NCBI GenBank assembly: GCA_033761985.1
Contig: JANRMB010000084.1
Span: 1 to 49,471 of the forward strand
Origin: Candidatus Sumerlaeia bacterium
Lineage (GTDB): Bacteria > Sumerlaeota > Sumerlaeia > SLMS01 > JAHLLQ01
DNA: 49,471 nt
Reading direction: 5' to 3'
Shown: one piece after another, positions 12,048 to 46,571 of the stretch
How positions within the stretch are numbered: the first letter of the stretch is position 1
Layout: each line of letters begins with the position of its first letter
Made by a program: the position numbers and the translations under genes
The notes under the pieces: model-generated
Told to the model about the DNA's origin: nothing
The model's database searches: none
The model's input: only the letters and a program-made list of their open reading frames with translations

Positions 12048-13271
12048 TCATTCTACCTGAAGAACGACATCGGGACTGTTGAGCGTTAACTGCGATGAAC
12101 TTTGTAAGAATGTAATTTTTCCTGCTTCATATTCAGGGTGAGTTTGAAGAAAATTTGTTGATGTAACCCTTTGTTTTATGAAATTGTAAGTATTGCGACC
12201 CGCTTCTGCGCCCTTCAGTACTATTATGCCATTGTTTTCTGGGAATCTTTTCTCAATATATGAATAGTAGATATGGCCATTGTGGTAACTCATATCTATA
12301 TCTTCATATCTCCAAGCGCCATTCAATGCGTTAGTATTAGAAATTGATTGAGCTGCCGACCAATTCCCGGTAAGGCTTCCTTTACTGTGATAAACGATAG
12401 ATTCATTGTTTGGAGTTATGTACATATAAACATATTGGCCATTTCTTCCTGCATTAGGATCGAAGACTACGCCTGGACGTTCTTTAGGTGTTGGATTAGT
12501 GCTAGAATAACCAATCTCCATAAAGTTGTTAGTTGAGTTTATTGAGCCAACGGGTAGTTGTGTATAATAGCAATTATAGAAAACATTGGTAGCGATAAGC
12601 CAATTGCTGTTGCCAGAATTCAAAGCGGAATCATTGCTAATGAACATTGTATCTGGACGTTCAGATGGTATGGATGTATGATTGATTGTATGGATATTTT
12701 TTGAAATCCAAGTGGTAGTACCAATAGCTTTCTCTGCTATGATATAAGATGTTCTGTAGTTATTAGTACCTTGTTGCAGGAGTTCTTCAGTAATCCATGT
12801 CGTGGCGATATAGTAATTCCCATTTACTTTGGCAATTGACATTCTAGGTGTTGATGTTGCGGCATTTCCCAAGTAATGAGGTTGTGACCATGTTGTACCC
12901 GCATTTGAACTCTCAATAAAATATAGGCCATCAATTTGTGTTCCATTTATAGAAATTGATGAATTGAATACACAATATATTACACCATTATGAGATATCA
13001 TATCTCTCATTCCAAAGGTTGACTCACCAGTTGGTAAGGTAATTCTTTTATGTATTCCGCTATTCGAATCATACAAATAGGTGTAGAACGTTGTTGTGCC
13101 AGTACCAGGTATATAACTATATAATAAATAATGTTTATTGCTTGTTGAATCGTAAGCTATTACAGGTTCAGATGCTTTTAATTCGGGGTCAGTTATTACG
13201 TTTGGAGGATCGGGCGTGAATGAGATTGCTATACTAGGAATAAGAATTAGTAACAGAGTTTTTTTCATCAT
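12048..13271 (-). CDS. Secreted hypothetical protein, BNR/Asp-box-like beta-propeller (sialidase-fold candidate), low G+C
   Basis: 407-aa ORF with signal peptide MMKKTLLLILIPSIAISF. Asp-box-like SSNAGTTWSQP and IGTTTWIS. Rich in S/T/N/Y. G+C is clearly below the flanks (60-nt spot counts of 32-45 %). Function is speculative. Confidence 0.7.
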   Translation of the reverse strand: MMKKTLLLILIPSIAISFTPDPPNVITDPELKASEPVIAYDSTSNKHYLLYSYIPGTGTTTFYTYLYDSNSGIHKRITLPTGESTFGMRDMISHNGVIYCVFNSSISINGTQIDGLYFIESSNAGTTWSQPHYLGNAATSTPRMSIAKVNGNYYIATTWITEELLQQGTNNYRTSYIIAEKAIGTTTWISKNIHTINHTSIPSERPDTMFISNDSALNSGNSNWLIATNVFYNCYYTQLPVGSINSTNNFMEIGYSSTNPTPKERPGVVFDPNAGRNGQYVYMYITPNNESIVYHSKGSLTGNWSAAQSISNTNALNGAWRYEDIDMSYHNGHIYYSYIEKRFPENNGIIVLKGAEAGRNTYNFIKQRVTSTNFLQTHPEYEAGKITFLQSSSQLTLNSPDVVLQVE

Positions 13272-13464
13272 AGTTCTCCTTTATGGTTTTATTTACGTAT
13301 CAAAAAGTTTTTTTATTTGTCAAGCCTTTTGTTTTTGGTAAAAAATCATCGTTCCCCACCACAATTCATTGCGTACCCTTGGCCCTTTTGGTTAGATTCC
13401 CTTTCGTGTGGTGCCAGCGGCCCATACCGTATTTTGTTCCCCTTCTGAAGGAGTACCCCCGGCC

Positions 13465-14565
13465 ATGATGGATATGAATGAGATGCTCAAGATCATGGTG
13501 CAGCGCAACGGTGCCGACTTGCACCTGCGCGTGGGCAAAACACCCGTCATGCGCCTGGGGGGCGGTCTTGCCCCCGTTGATCCCGACGTTCTCACCCCCG
13601 AGGACACCGAGCGCCTCATGCGGGAAATTACTCCCCCCCGTTACCAGCAAATGCTGCAGGAACACGGCAGCGCCGACTTCGCCTACTCCTACTCCGAACA
13701 AGCCCGCTTCCGGGTGAACGTCATGAAAGCCCGCGGTGTTGTCGGCATTGTAATGCGTCTGATCCCCAGCAAGCTTCTCCCCTTCGATGTTCTCGGCCTT
13801 CCCAAGGCCAGTATTGTGGAACTCCTTCACGCCCACCGCGGCATGTGCGTCATCACCGGCCCCACGGGTTCCGGAAAAACCACCACGCTTGCCACGATGA
13901 TTGACTATATTAACGAGAACCGTGACGCCCACATCATCACCATCGAAGACCCCATCGAATACACCCACCCGCACAAGAAATCCATCGTCACCCAGCGCGA
14001 GGTGCACGTCGATACGCCCTCCTTCTCCTACGCATTGCGGGGCGCCCTTCGTCAGGACCCGGATGTGATCCTCGTGGGGGAGATGCGCGACCTTGAAACC
14101 ATGGAAGCCGCCCTTACCGCCGCGGAAACCGGTCACTTGGTTTTCGGAACTCTCCACACCATCTCCGCCGCCGCCACCATCGACCGTATTATCGACGCTT
14201 TCCCCCACAGCCAGCAGGAGCAAATCCGCTCGGTTCTCGCCGTGGCGCTTAAGACCATCATTGCCCAAACGCTTCTTCCCCGTTTGGAAGGCAAGGGCCG
14301 CGTCGCCGCCTACGAGATACTTCACTGTATTCCCGCCGTGCAGAACTTGATCCGCGAAGGGAAAACCAACCGCATTATCTCCACTATCCAGACCTCCATG
14401 AAGCACGGGATGGTCTCCATGGACGACTACCTCTTCAACCTCTACAAAGCGAAGAAGGTTGATGGCGAAGTAGTGCTGGAACGCGCTCACTATCCCGATG
14501 AATTACGTGTCAAGATGCTTGGCTTGGCGAAGGATGAACCGGAAGAGGAAGAACCCGCCATCTAA
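13465..14565 (+). CDS. pilT: Type IV pilus retraction ATPase PilT
   Basis: Walker A GPTGSGKTTTLA. Asp box/Walker B DPDVILVGEMRD. His box TGHLVFGTLHT. PilT signature AIRNLIREGK-like (AVQNLIREGKT). The ATG at 13465, preceded by GAAGGAG, is preferred over the ORF-track start at 13408. Confidence 0.93.
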   Translation: MMDMNEMLKIMVQRNGADLHLRVGKTPVMRLGGGLAPVDPDVLTPEDTERLMREITPPRYQQMLQEHGSADFAYSYSEQARFRVNVMKARGVVGIVMRLIPSKLLPFDVLGLPKASIVELLHAHRGMCVITGPTGSGKTTTLATMIDYINENRDAHIITIEDPIEYTHPHKKSIVTQREVHVDTPSFSYALRGALRQDPDVILVGEMRDLETMEAALTAAETGHLVFGTLHTISAAATIDRIIDAFPHSQQEQIRSVLAVALKTIIAQTLLPRLEGKGRVAAYEILHCIPAVQNLIREGKTNRIISTIQTSMKHGMVSMDDYLFNLYKAKKVDGEVVLERAHYPDELRVKMLGLAKDEPEEEEPAI

Positions 14566-14690
14566 GGAATCGGGCGGGGGAGGGGGAATCTCTGTGTTGG
14601 GCATCGGTCTCATCCCTTCGTCACGTACTTCAGTACGCTCCTGGGGCTTCGCCTTGCCCGCCTTGATCTTCCCCCTCCCCGCCCGATTCC
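14566..14690. repeat. G-rich 22/23-nt inverted repeat enclosing 80 nt, immediately after the pilT stop
   Basis: Left arm GGAATCGGGCGGGGGAGGGGGAA (14566-14588). Right arm TTCCCCCTCCCCGCCCGATTCC (14669-14690). The arms are complementary except for a single-C indel. The interior contains the small hairpin CGTAC-TTCA-GTACG and a GGGCA/TGCCC pairing. Confidence 0.8.
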
Positions 14691-14835
14691 TTCTCGGAAG
14701 TTTGTGCTCAAATTGATGTCAATAAGGTCAGTAAGGTCAAATTGGCCCCATTGTCCAGATTGACTTTACCTCAATCCCCTATCCTCATCATCCTTGAAAT
14801 CGATGTTAAAATCACTGCTTGGAGTTCAGATGACG

Positions 14836-14860
14836 CCGGGCCGTTGGCCCTCGGTTTTGT
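14836..14860 (+). terminator. Intrinsic-terminator-like hairpin, about 270 nt downstream of pilT
   Basis: CCGGGCC-GTT-GGCCC(T)CGG stem with a 1-nt bulge, followed directly by TTTTGTTG on the + strand. Confidence 0.5.
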
Positions 14861-14871
14861 TGCATGGTTGG

Positions 14872-14902
14872 TATACCTAGGCCGTTGGCCTAGGCTGGTA
14901 TA
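14872..14902. repeat. Second GGCCGTTGGCC-core hairpin
   Basis: TATACCTAGGCC-GTT-GGCCTAGG(CT)GGTATA. It shares the 11-nt core GGCCGTTGGCC with the hairpin at 14836-14854. Confidence 0.6.
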
Positions 14903-15010
14903 AGGCCGCACCCTTGGCGCTGGATTTTCTCGATACCCTCCTAATCACCTTTGGACCCGGTTCACGCAGTCGCCCCATTTATCTTTGTGATGTGAACGAC
15001 CGAGAACACC

Positions 15011-15046
15011 ATCCTGTTTATCCTTTTCATCCTGCTCATCCTTGTG
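15011..15046. repeat. Four tandem 9-nt units ATCCT-NNNN (minus-strand reading AGGAT[G/A])
   Basis: ATCCTGTTT / ATCCTTTTC / ATCCTGCTC / ATCCTTGTG start at 15011, 15020, 15029 and 15038. A further ATCCC lies at 15055. A related cluster lies at 14774, 14781 and 14790. Confidence 0.8.
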
Positions 15047-15104
15047 AATTCCCCATCCCTGCTATCGATGATAAGAAATCAGTTTTGTGTTTTTGTGGCC
15101 CTGC

Positions 15105-15608
15105 TCACTCCTCCCGGATCATCCGGATCGGTCGTTGATCCATCTCCTCGATTTCCTTCAACAGTAACTCCCGCTGTTCCGGAGTGAGAATCGTTGCAAA
15201 GTTGCTCATATGGCCGAGCATTCTTCCTGCAATCCCCCTCGGCACATGTTCGTTTTCCTGCAGTAGGCGCTCCACCAATTCCAAATCTCCGGGTGATTCC
15301 ACAATCTGCCGGATCGTGCGCAGGCGCATTTGCCGAAGTTCCTCAAAATCACTCTCTGTATTCTCACGAATCACCGCCACCATTTCAGTGAGCTTCTCGC
15401 GTTGATCTTCATTGAGGTTAAGCTTGTTGGAAATCAAATCCACATCGGGGGCCATGGGGGGCATGCCGGGGGGTGGAACCATGGGGAAAATCAGATGATT
15501 CTTGGGACTGAAGAGCAACCAGCCCAGCACCAGACACACGCAGAGCAATCCCACGTTCAATCCGGCGGAAAGCCACAACAGTCCGTTTCGTTTGTACCAA
15601 AGTTTCAT
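15105..15608 (-). CDS. CpxP/Spy-like periplasmic protein (LTXXQ-motif, 'periplasmic heavy metal sensor' family), membrane-anchored
   Basis: N-terminal TM LLWLSAGLNVGLLCVCLVLGWLLF. Motifs LNLNEDQREKL and LTPEQRELL. The start overlaps the stop of the upstream anti-sigma gene by 4 nt. Confidence 0.75.
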   Translation of the reverse strand: MKLWYKRNGLLWLSAGLNVGLLCVCLVLGWLLFSPKNHLIFPMVPPPGMPPMAPDVDLISNKLNLNEDQREKLTEMVAVIRENTESDFEELRQMRLRTIRQIVESPGDLELVERLLQENEHVPRGIAGRMLGHMSNFATILTPEQRELLLKEIEEMDQRPIRMIREE

Positions 15609-15997
15609 GGCTTCACCTCCTGTGGGGAAGATTCCTGCGGTTGAATCAACTCGCGCGTTGCCGTTTCCAAGGGATCGTACTCCAGCGCCGGAAGAAAAAC
15701 CGAACCCGTCAGAGTGCCGCTCAGGGTTGAATCTGTCGGTGAGCCGATTCCTTGGGGAAGCAGCAACAGCATCGCCACCAGAAAACAGGTGATCCCCAAG
15801 ACAAAACCCCCCAACCCGTAGGCGAAGCGGAGAGCCAACGGTTCCATGGGGTCGCTGAGTGCCAACACTTCACCGCTGCTTTGATGCTGCCGAACCACGG
15901 CAACGCTGGCCATTACCCGCGCCCGGAAGGCACTTCCTTCCGGGGCTTGGGGGAGTTCCGCCAATCCCTTTTCTATGCGTTCGTCCAGTTCATTCAT
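15605..15997 (-). CDS. Putative membrane-bound anti-sigma factor
   Basis: 130 aa with a single TM (LGGFVLGITCFLVAMLLLL). It has 4-nt overlaps with the ECF sigma gene upstream and the LTXXQ gene downstream. The call rests on position and topology, with no diagnostic motif. Confidence 0.55.
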   Translation of the reverse strand: MNELDERIEKGLAELPQAPEGSAFRARVMASVAVVRQHQSSGEVLALSDPMEPLALRFAYGLGGFVLGITCFLVAMLLLLPQGIGSPTDSTLSGTLTGSVFLPALEYDPLETATRELIQPQESSPQEVKP

Positions 15998-16635
15998 GAT
16001 TCCACCTCAGCACGTTGTTTCAAGGTTTGACGCCCGCGGGAGAGCAACGACTCCACGGCTTTTTCAGTCAATTCCAACGCTCCAGCGATTTCCTTCATGC
16101 TTTGCTCCTCCTGATAAAAGAGCATCAACACCATGCGTTGGCGGGCTGGTAGCTCGGCAATCCAACGACTCATCAAATCCCGCGTCTGAGATTGATGCAA
16201 CCGCTCCACCAAACCGGGGGAGTCATCGGGTACTTCCCGGGTGTCATCCCACTGGTCGGGGCGTTTTTTCCTTAAAACATTCATCGCTTGGTTGGAAAGA
16301 AGCGTCGCCAACCAGGAGCGCAGCGGCCGCTCGGGTTTCCACCGGGAGGCATGCGTCCACAACTTGAGAAACACTTCCTGAGCCACGTCCTCGGCTTCGT
16401 CGAGATTTCCCAGAATGCGAAAAGCAAACGTGCGCGCCCACTGTTCATGTTCTAGAAGAAGGATTTCAAAGGCGTCGGCGTCACCGCGTCCCACACGGGC
16501 CATCAACTCAGCCTCGCGACCCATTGGCGCCGAAGTACCTTGATAGGATCGGGTTTTTGGTGAGCTCGACCAAAAACCCTGAACCTGTTCGGTCCATCCC
16601 TGAAACAATCGATTTCGGTTTACGAATTCTCTCAT
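15994..16635 (-). CDS. ECF-type RNA polymerase sigma-70 family factor
   Basis: Region 2: DADAFEILLLEHEQWARTFAFRILGNLDEAEDVAQEVFLKLW. Region 4: LPARQRMVLMLFYQEEQSMKEIAGALELTEKAVESLLSRGRQTLK. The start is ambiguous: GTG 16665, ATG 16635 (chosen) or ATG 16524 (MGREAELMARV, classic ECF N-terminus). Confidence 0.88.
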   Translation of the reverse strand: MREFVNRNRLFQGWTEQVQGFWSSSPKTRSYQGTSAPMGREAELMARVGRGDADAFEILLLEHEQWARTFAFRILGNLDEAEDVAQEVFLKLWTHASRWKPERPLRSWLATLLSNQAMNVLRKKRPDQWDDTREVPDDSPGLVERLHQSQTRDLMSRWIAELPARQRMVLMLFYQEEQSMKEIAGALELTEKAVESLLSRGRQTLKQRAEVES

Positions 16636-16645
16636 GGGCTCGGGT

Positions 16646-17203
16646 CTACTCCTGAGGACCGTCACTCGTGCGCCAAATGTCTCCGGCGCTTACGGTACCG
16701 TTGGTGGGGTCGTATCGTATATACGTGCTTCCGGAAGTTGAATCCTCCCAGGGGGCTTTATTGTAACCCGGATAGAAAGTGATGTCAAAGTGATCGGGGC
16801 GTTGATCAGGGCCGAAACTCGCCAGCGCATACCGCGACTCCGCATCGATGGGCGTGGCGCCGTAGGCGAAGTTCCCTCCAATCCGGAAGCTCCCCGCCTG
16901 AAGATCGATGCCGTTGAAGATATCCTTGGGGATATCAGTCAAGTAGGAAACGGGGGTGGTAAGGGGAATCAATCGCTGAAACAACGGCACAAGGGTGCTG
17001 GGCGGGTATTTGTTGGCGTCGGCGGCATAGGCTTCCAGCGCCGTGGCGATGGTGCGTTGATCTGCTTTCACCCGCGCCACCTTGCTTCGAATTTGGGCTG
17101 TGAGCAGGTTTGGCATCGCGATACCTGCCAGGATGGCGATGATGGCCACCACCACCAGTAGTTCAATCAGGGTAAATCCGTAGCGGAAATTGTTCATTTT
17201 CAA
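16646..17203 (-). CDS. Prepilin-type N-terminal cleavage/methylation domain protein (pilin/pseudopilin-like), paralog of 11270-11983
   Basis: YGFTLIELLVVVAIIAILAGIAMPNLLTAQIRSKVARVKADQRTIATALEAY. C-terminal YDPTNGTVSAGDIWR. Confidence 0.9.
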   Translation of the reverse strand: MKMNNFRYGFTLIELLVVVAIIAILAGIAMPNLLTAQIRSKVARVKADQRTIATALEAYAADANKYPPSTLVPLFQRLIPLTTPVSYLTDIPKDIFNGIDLQAGSFRIGGNFAYGATPIDAESRYALASFGPDQRPDHFDITFYPGYNKAPWEDSTSGSTYIRYDPTNGTVSAGDIWRTSDGPQE

Positions 17204-17212
17204 GCACCTCCT

Positions 17213-17764
17213 TCAAGGTCTTCCGGGGAACATCCCGGGGGGTGGACCCAGCATCAGCATGGGCGGTTCGCCGGCATCGAGTTTCTTCTCCAGCTTTTCC
17301 ATGAACTTCGCCTGCTCATCTTCAGAAAGATTTTTAATGGGGCTGATGGGGCTTTCTTTGAGCCGTTCGATGAAAAGCTGCTTCATCTTTTCCCGCTGCT
17401 CATCGTTGAGCGTGGCCCGAACCTTTTGGAAGCGCTCGCGGGCTTCTTCCGGAGACTTGGGCGGCCCCTGTTCCATCAACCCCTCAATTGTTTTCTTTTG
17501 TTCCGCCGAAAGATCCAACTGCGTTTCCATTAGGTGCCGCATGTTGGCGCGCACATCCGAGGGGCTGCTGGGATTCGGAAACGGAAGATTGCGCGTGTTG
17601 CTCTCAGTTGAAGCGGGGCCTTGGGCGGAAGCAAACACCGGCCGGGGAGCAGCGGAAGGCCCCACAAGAAAGGGCCGCAGTTGATAGGCGGAAAAAGTAA
17701 GTCCAGCAATGAGGAGGACTACCGCCGAACCCATTAGGGCCCGTTTGCGGGAATTGGATTCCAT
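17213..17764 (-). CDS. Second CpxP/Spy-like LTXXQ-motif periplasmic protein
   Basis: TM/signal anchor LMGSAVVLLIAGLTF. Repeated motifs LDLSAEQKKTI, LNDEQREKM and LSEDEQAKF. The Pro/Gly/Met-rich tail GPPPGMFPGRP resembles PPPGMPPMAP in the paralog at 15105-15608. Confidence 0.7.
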   Translation of the reverse strand: MESNSRKRALMGSAVVLLIAGLTFSAYQLRPFLVGPSAAPRPVFASAQGPASTESNTRNLPFPNPSSPSDVRANMRHLMETQLDLSAEQKKTIEGLMEQGPPKSPEEARERFQKVRATLNDEQREKMKQLFIERLKESPISPIKNLSEDEQAKFMEKLEKKLDAGEPPMLMLGPPPGMFPGRP

Positions 17765-44166: not shown

Positions 44167-45540
44167 GTGGGTGTACTTCCGGCCGAGCGATTTTGGCGGC
44201 TGGCTTGGCTGCTTGCCGTGGTTTGGGCTTTTGCGTTGGCTGTGGTTTTTCGGCAAACGTCCGCGGACTCCTCATTTCCCAAAGTGGATGCCATCGCCTT
44301 TTACACTGCCGGTAGTTTGGCAGCCGAAGGCCGTTGGAATGCCATGTACACCGCCCGTGCGGAACGCCGGAATGTGGCGATGGATGTTGCGCCCGTAGGG
44401 GCGATGCCCGGCGCACCGCTGGAATTTTCGCTTATCACCGTGAGGACTTCATCGGAGTGGCGAGAATCGGCGCTGGCGCAGGGTTATCCGGATTCGAATG
44501 CCCCACCGTTTGCCTATACCCCTGGGTATGCGGTGCTGTTTCAGGGGTTGGCGCTGCTTCCGTGGCGATGGGCCACATTCATGTGGGATGCCCTGAATCT
44601 CCTGATTTTTGCCGGTGGACTGGCGCTGTTCTGCCGGGATGCTTCCGAACGCCACGGGTCGTTGATCTTAGCGGTCGCGTTATTGTTGCTTCCACTTGCG
44701 CACCCGCTTCAGTTCTCGCTCTTCTGCGGTCAGGGAACGCCGATGATTGTGGGTGCCGGGTTGATTCTGTTTTCTACGGCGGCGGGTCGATTGGGGGCTG
44801 TCCCCGCAGGGGTGCTTGGCGCCGTTTGCGGGGTGGTGCTTTTCAGCAAACTTCTGCCGATATTGTGGGTTGTGCCGCTTTTTGCGGTCAGACGTTGGGC
44901 GCTTGTGAGTGGCGTACTTGCGGGTGTGGCGATTGTGTTGGTGTTGGGGCTCGTGGTGGCGCCGTGGGGCGCTCATCTGCAGATGGTCGATACGGCCCGG
45001 GCGCTTCTTTCCGGAGTGCAGTACTGGAGCGGAAATCAATCACTCGAGGCGTTTGTGGGGCGCTTTTGGTATTCCACCAACCTTACGCAGATGCCGGGCA
45101 CGGCGGTGGAGCCGTTCATCCTAGGGGGCATTCTGAAAGGTGCAAAACTGCTTCTCTTACTGGGATTGCTCATCTTTACGCTGCGTAGCAAAGCCGGGCT
45201 TCCAAGGCTTGGTGTCTTGTGGCTGATGCTCCCGGCTCTGCTTCCCCACCTGAGTTGGAGCCATTATGGATTGTATGCCGTACCGGCATTGATCCTCTGC
45301 GGGGCCAGCGTGTTGGAGTCTTCGTCGCAGGGTTGGCGGAGAGGATTACAATGGGGAGTGCTGATTCTTCTCGGGATTGCGTGGGGAATGAATCCCGACT
45401 TTTGGAAGATACTGGTGGAGGGGGGAACGGGAGGAGCGGGTGTTCAAACGCTGTTCCGGATTGCCGTGGGGCTTCCGTTTCTGGCGATGTTGGGCGTATG
45501 GACGTGGGCATTTGGAAGTACGATTTTAAGGAACGAATAG
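44167..45540 (+). CDS. Polytopic membrane protein, DUF2029/GT87-like glycosyltransferase candidate
   Basis: GTG start 4 nt after uppS. More than 10 hydrophobic helices. The early loop PPFAYTPGYAVLF...LPW resembles the GT-C/GT87 pattern. The family call is tentative. Confidence 0.6.
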   Translation: MGVLPAERFWRLAWLLAVVWAFALAVVFRQTSADSSFPKVDAIAFYTAGSLAAEGRWNAMYTARAERRNVAMDVAPVGAMPGAPLEFSLITVRTSSEWRESALAQGYPDSNAPPFAYTPGYAVLFQGLALLPWRWATFMWDALNLLIFAGGLALFCRDASERHGSLILAVALLLLPLAHPLQFSLFCGQGTPMIVGAGLILFSTAAGRLGAVPAGVLGAVCGVVLFSKLLPILWVVPLFAVRRWALVSGVLAGVAIVLVLGLVVAPWGAHLQMVDTARALLSGVQYWSGNQSLEAFVGRFWYSTNLTQMPGTAVEPFILGGILKGAKLLLLLGLLIFTLRSKAGLPRLGVLWLMLPALLPHLSWSHYGLYAVPALILCGASVLESSSQGWRRGLQWGVLILLGIAWGMNPDFWKILVEGGTGGAGVQTLFRIAVGLPFLAMLGVWTWAFGSTILRNE

Positions 45541-45611
45541 ATCTACCAGCAATCGATAATGATGTCGCGTATAATTGACTTTGAATTAACTGATTCCTAA
45601 TATGTTTATTT

Positions 45612-45786
45612 CACGCAAAGGCGCAAAGAACCGCGAAGAGCGCAAAGGAGCAGTCTTTTCATTTGAAGATAAATAGATGGGGAATTTCTTATCGGGCATT
45701 TATTTTATTTTACTTAGCTTCTTAATTTGGAAGCATTTTTACAAAAAACTTTGCGCGCTTTGCGGTTCTTTGCGCCTTTGCGTTAA
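45612..45786. repeat. MITE-like element: 34-nt inverted repeats built of GCGCAAAG sub-repeats flanking a 101-nt AT-rich core
   Basis: Left arm CGCAAAGGCGCAAAGAACCGCGAAGAGCGCAAAG (45614-45647). Right arm CTTTGCGCGCTTTGCGGTTCTTTGCGCCTTTGCG (45749-45782). 32 of 34 positions are complementary. Confidence 0.75.
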
Positions 45787-45863
45787 ACTACTTAATTGTT
45801 TCGTTCACTTTCCCATAATCGTACATTCAAAATTTTATCAGGACAAATCTTTAGAGGACGAGT

Positions 45864-45898
45864 ATAAATAAAGAATGGGATTCCGAAGAAACCCATCC
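45864..45898 (-). terminator. Rho-independent terminator of the TPR lipoprotein gene
   Basis: Minus-strand reading GGATGGGTTTC-TTCG-GAATCCCATTC (11-bp stem with one mismatch and one G-U, UUCG loop), followed by TTTATTTAT. Confidence 0.7.
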
Positions 45899-45932
45899 TT
45901 GCTATCCTTGATATCGATGTAACTTTCCCTGC

Positions 45933-46571
45933 TCACAACGTGGTGGGATCGATTCCCTTTTCGCTAAGTTTTTCCTGAGCGGGAACGTATTTCTCATTCT
46001 TCTTGTAGGCCATTTTGTAGTCTTCGGTAGCCGCGGCGGTGTCGCCTTTGGCTTCCAGAGCTTCACCCCGGAGCATGTAGGCGGCTTCCAAATCGTCGTT
46101 TTCCTCGATGGCGGAATTGGCGTCATTCAAGGCTTTGTCGTACTCGCCTTGATCGTAGTGCAGACGCCCGCGGTTTACGTAGGCTTCGGCATAATCGTCG
46201 TTCAGTTCAATTGCCTTGTTGAAATCGGCCATGGCAGCGGCTTGGTTCCCTTGGCGGTAGTGGAGCACGCCACGGTTGTTGTAGGCCTGCTCGTATTCTT
46301 CATCAATCTCGATGGCCTTGTTATAGTCTTCCATGGCGGCTTCGAATTCACCGTTTGCCACGCGGCTGAGGCCACGGTTAAGGCGTGCCTTTTTGTCTTC
46401 GGGGTTTACGCTGAGAACTTTGTCAAAGACCTCAATGGCGTCGGGATATTTTTCGTCGTTATACTTGGCCAAACCACGGGAGATATCGGAGGTACGGCAT
46501 CCGGTTGTGACAAGGCCCGTAAGGGCAACAACGCCAAGGGCGAGGAGGATGGAAAAGTGACGTGAAAGCAT
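45933..46571 (-). CDS. TPR-repeat lipoprotein
   Basis: Lipobox LVTTGC. Five or more 34-aa TPR units (A..YN.G........A..DFNKAIELN..YAEAY.NRG). Confidence 0.88.
   Translation of the reverse strand: MLSRHFSILLALGVVALTGLVTTGCRTSDISRGLAKYNDEKYPDAIEVFDKVLSVNPEDKKARLNRGLSRVANGEFEAAMEDYNKAIEIDEEYEQAYNNRGVLHYRQGNQAAAMADFNKAIELNDDYAEAYVNRGRLHYDQGEYDKALNDANSAIEENDDLEAAYMLRGEALEAKGDTAAATEDYKMAYKKNEKYVPAQEKLSEKGIDPTTL

Follow-up and report, generated by a model that had tools for sequence, protein, structure and literature searches.

Phased ATCCT/AGGAT arrays of a Candidatus Sumerlaeia genome as copies of a repeat dispersed between genes

The subject of this work is a set of ATCCT arrays (AGGAT on the opposite strand) with a 9-nucleotide (nt) phase found in contig JANRMB010000084.1 of a Candidatus Sumerlaeia bacterium (assembly GCA_033761985.1), the analysed stretch of 49,471 nt being referred to below as the window. 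Two of the arrays occupy the spacer between pilT and a gene of the LTXXQ (Spy/CpxP) family and were interpreted in a first-pass annotation as a candidate regulatory RNA. The arrays are members of a dispersed family, and they probably represent single arms of an intergenic repeat rather than a device specific for this locus. The composite motif that defines the family is present three times in the window, including once behind an unrelated TPR gene, as well as at many unrelated metagenome loci, and the array is therefore not locus-specific.

Three one-armed copies in the window

The spacer is formed by the 539 nt that separate the stop of pilT (14565) from the stop of the convergent LTXXQ gene (15105). 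It is devoid of credible open reading frames (ORFs), as had been annotated: the minus strand has no open frame across the array, and a six-frame concatenated protein search was empty at E <= 10. A coding explanation of the array was also rejected on the ground that the ATG of CATCGATG is not kept across the repeat family. The copies recognized in the window are the following.

Copy A, 14774-14809: units ATCCC, ATCCT, ATCCT and ATCGA, terminating in ATCGATGTTAA; a full single arm.
Copy B (the main array), 15011-15074: seven units on the plus strand, ATCCT four times followed by ATTCC, ATCCC and ATCGA, terminating in ATCGATGATAA.
Copy C, 45895-45923: ATCCT-TGCT-ATCCT-TGAT-ATCGATGTAAC, beyond the coordinates of the first-pass annotation and about 30 kb from A and B.
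Hairpin at copy C, 45871-45900, minus strand: the innermost GGAU unit forms its 5' half (AAGGAUGGG ... CCCAUUCUU); found in the minimum free energy (MFE) structure, the z-score of the whole segment being not significant.

The coordinates given earlier for the units hold throughout, with ATCCT at 15011, 15020, 15029 and 15038 in exact 9-nt phase, ATCCC at 15055 and 14774, and ATCCT at 14781 and 14790. Tandem Repeats Finder describes the main array as 3.7 copies of period 9 at 15010-15042. None of 2000 dinucleotide-preserving shuffles of the spacer gave four ATCC in any fixed phase of 5-15 nt (three were obtained in 0.3% of them), and no other 4- or 5-mer makes a comparable phased run in the 49-kb window. 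The spacer contains six ATCCT against 1.2 +/- 1.1 in the shuffles, and nine ATCC against 4.6 +/- 1.9. The excess of GGAT motifs, put previously at about nine with roughly two expected, is thereby borne out, but the expectation of two suits the 5-mer and not the 4-mer.

Both spacer clusters extend beyond their regular units. The main array passes into the diverged units ATTCC (15048), ATCCC (15055) and ATCGA (15064), and the first cluster is prolonged in phase by ATCGA at 14799; A and B both terminate in ATCC(T/C)-TGNN-ATCGATG(T/A)TAA. In its plus-strand form copy A reads ATCCT-N4-ATCCT-N4-ATCGATGTTAA. The minus strand reads TTAACATCGAT-TT-CAAGGAT-GA-TGAGGAT-AG-GGGAT in copy A, TTATCATCGAT-AG-CAGGGAT-GG-GGAATT-CA-CAAGGAT-GA-GCAGGAT-GA-AAAGGAT-AA-ACAGGAT in copy B and TTA-CATCGAT-AT-CAAGGAT-AG-CAAGGAT-GG in copy C; the heptamer variant of this genome is CAAGGAT. 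The three copies share one orientation. Copy B begins 30 nt past the LTXXQ stop, and copy C lies 8 nt past the stop of the unrelated TPR gene (45933-46571, minus strand).

The conspicuous four-fold phase of copy B arose when an 18-nt unit was duplicated in tandem (CATCCTGTTTATCCTT and CATCCTGCTCATCCTT, 88% identity). This is what would be expected of a neutral minisatellite, in which the phase is a recent slippage product without selected meaning and the likeness to other arrays is due to chance. With three of nine columns variable, an invariant 5-nt core is calculated to appear by chance in about 5% of cases, and 55 of the 126 arrays listed in the genome scan described below are perfect tandem repeats. 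Slippage accounts for the copy number of B but not for the composite ATCCY-N4-ATCCY-N4-ATCGATG(T)TAA, which is common to A, C and at least 120 metagenome loci, and it leaves the shared pyrimidine-rich prefix unexplained. We regard the minisatellite as improbable; as a full explanation it is largely refuted and is kept only as the mechanism that expanded copy B.

The unity of the copies was seen by several approaches. A repeat search grouped 14780-14809, 15019-15048 and 15045-15074 as one family. The motif ATCCYN4ATCCYN4ATCGATG has three matches in the window at up to two mismatches (two of them exact, including copy A), with 0.09 expected. A profile built from the left arms of metagenome elements recognizes copy A at 14780-14817 (model positions 5-42, E 2.8e-5) and copies B and C at 15019-15041 and 45895-45920 (E 0.03 each). 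No inverted partner of the window arms was found, the best candidate (17 nt, 82%) being located 480 nt off within the pilT coding sequence. At copy C the inner unit pairs with a short degenerate partner, and the UAUUUAU tract that follows makes the hairpin look like a terminator of the TPR gene. The arm profile gave no copy in 46 kb of four other Sumerlaeia loci, which suggests a lineage-specific expansion.

Complete elements in metagenomes and genomes

Scanning metagenomes with ATCCYN4ATCCYN4ATCGATGWTAA revealed at least 120 loci against about 3 estimated chance matches, and several contigs bear multiple copies. IMG/VR contains only three matches to the composite motif, and a BLAST search of plasmids and phages gave no match. 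From the relatives 36 complete elements without redundancy were extracted, with lengths of 60-254 nt and a median of 81 nt; the 33-34 with enough flanking sequence were used for column statistics. A complete element is an intergenic inverted pair of arms, each with at least two ACAGGAT heptamers separated by two free bases, which is the reason for the occurrence of GAT every 9 nt; the loop between the arms comprises 2-190 nt. The consensus consists of a purine-rich flank, TTAACATCGAT, ga, ACAGGAT, g/n, ACAGGAT, the loop, the mirror image of the arm and a T/C-rich flank.

Conservation in the motif columns is 70-100%, also in left arms that were chosen only by the terminal 11-mer. Pairing between the two arms of the same element at the free (NN) positions, as compared with arms of different elements, is 0.21 vs 0.43 in column 12, 0.32 vs 0.27 in column 13, 0.44 vs 0.47 in column 21 and 0.29 vs 0.31 in column 22. 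It is thus sequence and not pairing that is conserved, the NN positions showing no covariation between the arms. Column 12, the first variable one after ATCGAT, is peculiar in that arms of the same element pair below chance and a purine is preferred in both, as if a perfect palindrome were avoided.

The elements have a fixed polarity: 47 pairs carry the GGAT arm on the 5' side of the ATCC arm and 5 carry it on the 3' side (22 vs 1 in the cross-phylum class described below). Only 1 of 125 elements is situated within a long ORF. With rough ORF proxies used as gene calls, the elements stand between tandem (31), convergent (11) and divergent (8) genes with median gaps to the flanking ORFs of 23-29 nt. 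No neighbouring gene family recurs in the 43 cross-phylum loci, the set in which neighbours were compared. Single arms are common, and relative to the flanking genes they display no strand bias (about 40 GGAU-sense vs 32 AUCC-sense). In 33% of cases the arm is followed by a T-rich tract, the background being 4%. The complete relatives are hairpins by construction; of the window copies only C has a short hairpin with a U tract, A and B having none.

The second source of relatives was a scan of one genome per species for four copies of ATCCT-N4, which gave 126 arrays among the matches listed: the 55 perfect tandem repeats mentioned above and 71 imperfect ones. The spacer of the imperfect listed arrays is non-random (G 0.61, T 0.47, N, A 0.52), which defines the unit as A-ATCCTGT-N. 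In 47 listed arrays at least two of the three spacers begin with G. Upstream of 23 of these 47, at a distance of no more than 200 nt, stands a phased AGGAT array, which gives a long inverted repeat; such a partner is found for 0 of the 24 other imperfect listed arrays. The looser class of ACAGGAT arrays extends over more than 12 phyla. Inverted elements were met in Acidobacteriota, Desulfobacterota, Gammaproteobacteria, Nitrosomonas, Poribacteria, Dehalococcoidia, Anaerolineae, Armatimonadota, Kiritimatiellota, Leptospirales and Bacillota. Their outer motifs vary with lineage, as exemplified by TGTCTGAATC in Desulfamplus and Poribacteria.

Several relatives deserve description on their own. 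The ATCCTG arrays of Poribacteria, Dehalococcoidia, Desulfamplus and others terminate in G(A/G)TTCAGACAA (left side TGTCTGAATC) and are often tandemly reiterated (loci L010, L019, L028, L033, L037, L038, L054, L061, L080, L091, L111, L115 and L124), and in Desulfamplus magnetovallimortis a palindromic element about 180 nt long is present many times. The acidobacterial locus L071 (Candidatus Versatilivorator) carries two elements between gspE and gspF, the arms of which terminate in ATCCTGTGCATCGATGTTAA, as copy A does. An element with a conserved loop occurs at apparently orthologous sites next to a type II secretion system (T2SS) / type IV pilus (T4P) ATPase gene in Acidobacteriota (L071, 2062-2482, within the apparent gspE-gspF operon, and L218, 5737-5887, assigned by eye from loop and flank similarity). 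As no gene family is recurrent among the neighbours overall, the link to pilus genes, which the window copies next to pilT seem to share, is probably coincidental. Rfam families cover none of the elements in 18 relative loci, the only match being an unrelated Acido-Lenti-1 RNA (RF01687, 45.9 bits; L108, 5953-5998, minus strand) about 500 nt from an ATCCTG array.

According to the dispersed-repeat reading, complete elements would fold into a long hairpin of 7-11-bp helices broken by 2x2 mismatches, with a U/C-rich tract on either strand, and may act between genes as bidirectional terminators or insulators or as RNA 3'-end structures. The heptamers and the terminal 11-mer would be kept through sequence-specific recognition by a putative factor and not through selection for pairing. 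The shared heptamer, the fixed polarity and the conservation without covariation together point to such a factor acting at intergenic boundaries. The single arms of the window probably have no dedicated regulatory role; any role would be incidental, the inner unit of C contributing one half of the TPR gene's terminator-like hairpin and B being contained in any 3' untranslated region (UTR) of the LTXXQ operon.

Several properties of the family are those of MITEs (miniature inverted-repeat transposable elements). If the arrays were MITE remnants, the heptamers would be subterminal transposase sites, CATCGATG the end of the element and TTAA (or TA) its target, and the window arms would be solo ends left by deletions. 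The arms are inverted with a fixed outward polarity, and terminal inverted repeats are present in all 36 complete relatives. The elements are multi-copy and intergenic, they have a conserved terminal 11-mer with TTAA on both sides, solo arms are frequent and the presence of the family is apparently lineage-specific. On the other hand, no transposase was found in about 250 loci between arms separated by 0.6-3.5 kb, which enclose only housekeeping genes. The loops differ in length and sequence even within one contig, no plasmid or phage match was found, and a heptamer spread over more than 12 phyla with differing outer motifs is unlike known MITE families. Since TTAA is itself palindromic and part of the conserved motif, no target duplication can be demonstrated; the flanks beyond TTAA are purine- or pyrimidine-rich and are not directly repeated. 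This origin seems to us rather unlikely. As compared with the RUP, Correia and Nezha elements, the family is similar in length (60-250 nt), terminal inverted repeats, intergenic location, solo ends and possible terminator or promoter activity. It differs in that no partner transposase was found and no target-site duplication is demonstrable, by heterogeneous internal sequence and by arms built of a 9-nt-phased heptamer kept far beyond one lineage.

Similarity to REP, BIME and REPIN sequences is seen in the short, multi-copy and intergenic nature of the repeats, in the occurrence of singletons, inverted dimers with variable linkers and clusters, in the proposed roles in termination or mRNA 3'-end stabilisation, and in the lineage-specific expansion. 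A REP unit is a small hairpin (imperfect palindrome) with a GTAG or CGTC tag (PMC3733652). By contrast, the arm consensus TTAACATCGAT-NN-ACAGGAT-NN-ACAGGAT has neither an internal stem-loop nor a tag, and the ACAGGAT heptamer is cross-phylum, which REP sequences are not. RAYT-like ORFs found in loci L145 and L215 are flanked by classical GTAG-type REPs of their own and not by the arms described here, the ATCGATGTTAA-family arms being 0.7-2 kb away. These two regions (L145, 580-1250, and L215, 4850-6000) are classical REPtron-like layouts with GTAG-tagged palindromic repeats on the same contigs as ATCGATGTTAA arms.

Uptake sequences (DUS of Neisseria and USS of Pasteurellaceae) resemble the family in that the motif and not the helix is conserved, being kept through protein recognition with the hairpin as a by-product, and in that single copies or inverted pairs with unrelated loops occupy intergenic positions. 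They differ in being present also inside genes, in their restriction to one bacterial family and in the lack of an internal 9-nt repeat; uptake sequences are also far denser, about one per kb. The interspersed intergenic palindromic repeats (REP- or MITE-like) are thus the class to which the family is best assigned, though it fails the defining tests of both. It appears to be undescribed: a literature search by sequence strings gave nothing relevant to the repeat, and neither an Rfam family nor a describing paper was found.

RNA-level and operator readings of the spacer

Beside the copies, the spacer and its margin contain the following structures.

14561-14697, plus strand: long G/C-rich hairpin starting from the pilT stop codon, with 22-nt arms that are 91% complementary.
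14718-14765, plus strand: second 9-nt tandem; GTCAATAAG in 2.6 copies (14718-14740) pairs with CCATTGTCCAGATTGAC into a small hairpin, the arms of which are also 9-nt periodic.
14838-14860, plus strand: terminator-like hairpin GGGCCGTTGGCCC followed by TCGGTTTTGT.
14877-14895, plus strand: related hairpin CCTAGGCCGTTGGCCTAGG.

The hairpin next to pilT is highly stable (-75.2 kcal/mol, z = -6.7, 0 of 200 shuffles as stable). It does not belong to the family of repeats and probably forms the 3' end structure of pilT. The two hairpins at 14838-14860 and 14877-14895 are each followed by GGYTGGTATA. Beyond the pilT-proximal hairpin the spacer folds no better than its shuffles (z = -1.2 for the minus and +0.4 for the plus strand). 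Between 14300 and 15800 no promoter-like site was found on either strand and no terminator-like site on the minus strand. A search of the window region against Rfam (cmscan, E <= 10) returned only chance-level miRNA matches, which fall on the pilT hairpin, and no match to CsrB, CsrC, RsmX, RsmY or RsmZ.

The RNA-level interpretation of the array was based on its minus strand, where 15011-15074 indeed contains many GGA motifs of the CAGGA(U/C/A)G / ANGGA type in the form of CAAGGAUG, GCAGGAUG, AAAGGAUA, ACAGGAUG and CAGGGAUG. The units CAAGGAUG and CAGGAUG match the CsrB-type / CsrA consensus. A CsrA-titrating RNA dedicated to the Spy/CpxP-like gene is not supported, given the presence of the same motif behind the TPR gene and next to unrelated metagenome genes. 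Against a CsrA sponge speak the relatives, which are mostly inverted pairs where the GGAU arm would be base-paired, the single arms without strand bias and the absence of an Rfam match. The minus-strand fold of 14700-15104 (z = -1.2) is equalled by 16 of 100 shuffles, several GGA are paired in its MFE structure, and the 9-nt spacing leaves no space for GGA-presenting hairpins. Like the CsrB and RsmZ small RNAs (sRNAs), the array is non-coding and repeats (C)A(A)GGAU(G) many times. The array differs from these RNAs by its 9-nt spacing, by the absence of loop presentation of GGA, of a delimiting promoter and terminator and of an Rfam match, and by being a dispersed DNA repeat of two orientations and not a single gene. 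The idea of a discrete sRNA gene finds no promoter-like site on either strand and no minus-strand terminator-like site in the interval given above, and that of a CpxQ-like sRNA processed from the 3' UTR finds neither a minus-strand hairpin with a U tract downstream of 15105 nor an Rfam match.

A more general form of the CsrA idea should be considered separately. In it the 9-nt-phased ACAGGAT/CAAGGAT arrays are a platform for a widely conserved trans-acting protein, the CsrA family being the obvious candidate, and copies B and C are multi-site platforms in the LTXXQ and TPR 3' UTRs. The GGAU arm would leave RNA polymerase first from either direction, and binding of a CsrA-family or similar RNA-binding protein to the heptamers would decide whether the hairpin forms, tuning termination against read-through, so that the elements would be protein-tunable terminators or insulators. 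This proposal makes use of the GGAT-arm-5' polarity (47:5 and 22:1), which a plain hairpin leaves unexplained, of the sequence kept without pairing covariation and of the T-rich tract behind the hairpin. In both B and C GGAU is on the sense strand right behind a stop codon. The units CAAGGAUG and (A)CAGGAUG agree with the CsrB repeat CAGGA(U/C/A)G and the in vitro selection (SELEX) core ACARGGAUG. Sites i and i+2 are 18 nt apart, and 18 nt is the reported optimum for dual-site CsrA binding. A heptamer common to many phyla calls for a factor that is itself widely conserved; CsrA occurs in most phyla, and about 30% of bacterial genomes have it (PMC13443453).

Other observations speak against the proposal. 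The metagenome single arms have no strand bias, the GGA motifs of complete elements are within helices and not in loops, no significant GGA-presenting fold exists in the window, and none of the five Csr/Rsm RNA families is matched. Searching by tblastn revealed no CsrA in the 49-kb window or in the retrieved relative loci, a negative that is weakly informative. The terminal TTAACATCGAT is left unexplained, and the class is present in Nitrosomonas and Chloroflexota, where CsrA is not confirmed. Weighing these points, we treat the platform as a tentative proposal of low probability.

The plus strand had been offered as an alternative, with copy A as a C/U-rich anti-Shine-Dalgarno-like seed of an sRNA whose 3' end would be the hairpin at 14838-14860. 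A terminator-like hairpin near the first cluster was detected as annotated, at 14838-14850 with its TCGGTTTTGT tract, about 30 nt past copy A, and the tract CCUCAAUCCCCUAUCCUCAUCAUCCUU is C/U-rich; apart from the nearby hairpin nothing positive supports the seed. No promoter-like site was found (0 vs 1.2 expected), the plus-strand fold is not significant (z = +0.4), Rfam gives no match, and the tract is nothing else than an ATCC arm with the pyrimidine-rich prefix of the family, seen at unrelated loci. Such an RNA is very unlikely.

Closest to our results came the suggestion of a DNA-level array of protein sites: in the relatives motif positions are kept while the spacers are free and do not covary between arms. 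Its local version did not stand up, a dispersed repeat being found instead. An iteron-like operator for a DNA-binding regulator, e.g. of the operon encoding the ECF sigma factor, would be consistent with direct repeats of a conserved core with free spacers and with the adjacent ECF sigma / anti-sigma / LTXXQ operon. The array is, however, placed between the 3' ends of convergent genes where no promoter-like site occurs, the same motif lies behind an unrelated gene 30 kb away and is spread over unrelated loci of other organisms, and neither a GC-skew switch nor a replication gene is nearby to suggest an origin. We consider a local operator hardly credible. A replication origin with DnaA boxes was rejected as well, there being no GC-skew switch and the units differing from TTATCCACA in the last three bases. 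Possible resemblances, all of them short, were noted to the dif XerD arm (ATGTTAAAT), boxA (TTTAACA), the nic core of MOB-P (YATCCTG|Y) and helix 24 of 16S rRNA (AACAGGAUUA).

Gene setting and meaning of the family

By the relatives of its PilT the organism falls within Sumerlaeota (formerly BRC1). The genes around the spacer are arranged as follows.

13408-14565, plus strand: pilT (T2SSE ATPase), convergent with the LTXXQ gene.
15105-15608, minus strand: LTXXQ / Spy-CpxP family gene, the last one of a minus-strand run.
15605-15997, minus strand: anti-sigma-like ORF of the same run.
15994-16665, minus strand: ECF sigma gene of the same run.

A single relative of the LTXXQ protein (83% identical) was found, and it belongs to a syntenic relative of the locus on a 5967-nt contig (GCA_041443025.1 / Joint Genome Institute (JGI) 3300059473). 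The 366-amino-acid PilT is identical in the two contigs, and the pilT-LTXXQ spacer is 725 nt there vs 539 nt here. The identity of PilT against 83% for the LTXXQ protein could reflect either very uneven constraint or a recombination boundary within the spacer. In the relative the JGI gene caller placed a 37-amino-acid ORF beginning 66 nt past the LTXXQ stop, the same offset as that of the ATG at 15039 in the window; this hints at collinearity only. Protein-guided scans of metagenome and genome collections for orthologous spacers gave no match, and in 9 loci of PilT relatives (75-80% DNA identity) other genes lie downstream and no spacer resembles that of the window.

Further features of the neighbourhood were observed. 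The last codons of the LTXXQ gene (P-I-R-M-I-R-E-E, 15108-15131) are a 9-nt repeat, ATCCGGATG / ATCCGGGAG on the sense strand, which puts GGAT at plus-strand positions 15116 and 15125, 9 nt apart and inverted relative to array B; this spacing is probably a coincidence. Upstream in the same strand run a 183-amino-acid ORF (17213-17764, minus strand) with LSAEQ and LNDEQ motifs and no Pfam match at E <= 0.01 looks, from its sequence, like a second LTXXQ-type periplasmic protein. A 407-amino-acid ORF without a Pfam match (12048-13271, minus strand) lies in a stretch of low GC (0.42 vs 0.53 in the window) between a pseudopilin gene and pilT. It looks like an insertion in this genome, as on the related 5967-nt contig pseudopilin and pilT are separated by only about 650 nt with no gene called between them. 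Near copy C, a long inverted repeat at 45609-45787 (39-nt arms, 92% complementary, 101 nt apart, with GCGCAAAG-like units) sits in the 390-nt spacer of the convergent genes 44167-45540 (plus strand, GT87) and 45933-46571 (minus strand, TPR). The GT87-TPR spacer parallels the pilT-LTXXQ one, with a big hairpin by the plus-strand gene and a repeat arm by the minus-strand gene.

Several facts weigh against the interpretation of the arrays as mere arms of a dispersed repeat. Neither a trans-acting factor nor a transposase or RAYT is linked to the family, which leaves its spread and sequence conservation unexplained. All window copies are single arms, which excludes a function of A and B as hairpins or terminators, and a clear T tract follows the arms in only a third of the relatives. 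Copies A, B and C have one orientation and two of them present GGAU arrays right behind minus-strand stop codons, as predicted by an RNA-level role; moreover, the coincidence of the heptamer with the best-known CsrA-binding motif is left unused.

For the locus itself, recognition of a dispersed repeat as the source of the signal removes the tempting story of a CsrA sponge or a CpxQ-like sRNA serving an envelope-stress operon. For the family, it reveals repeats abundant in soil and sediment metagenomes, and one heptamer in 9-nt phase over more than 12 phyla. If the platform proposal were true, the elements would constitute a previously undescribed cross-phylum class of cis-elements, with the LTXXQ 3' UTR array as a multi-site member, and, outside Gammaproteobacteria, they would be the first non-coding elements to titrate CsrA or to be controlled by it. 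Should the factor be CsrA or another global RNA-binding protein, the long-open matter of CsrA titration or channelling outside Gammaproteobacteria would become testable.

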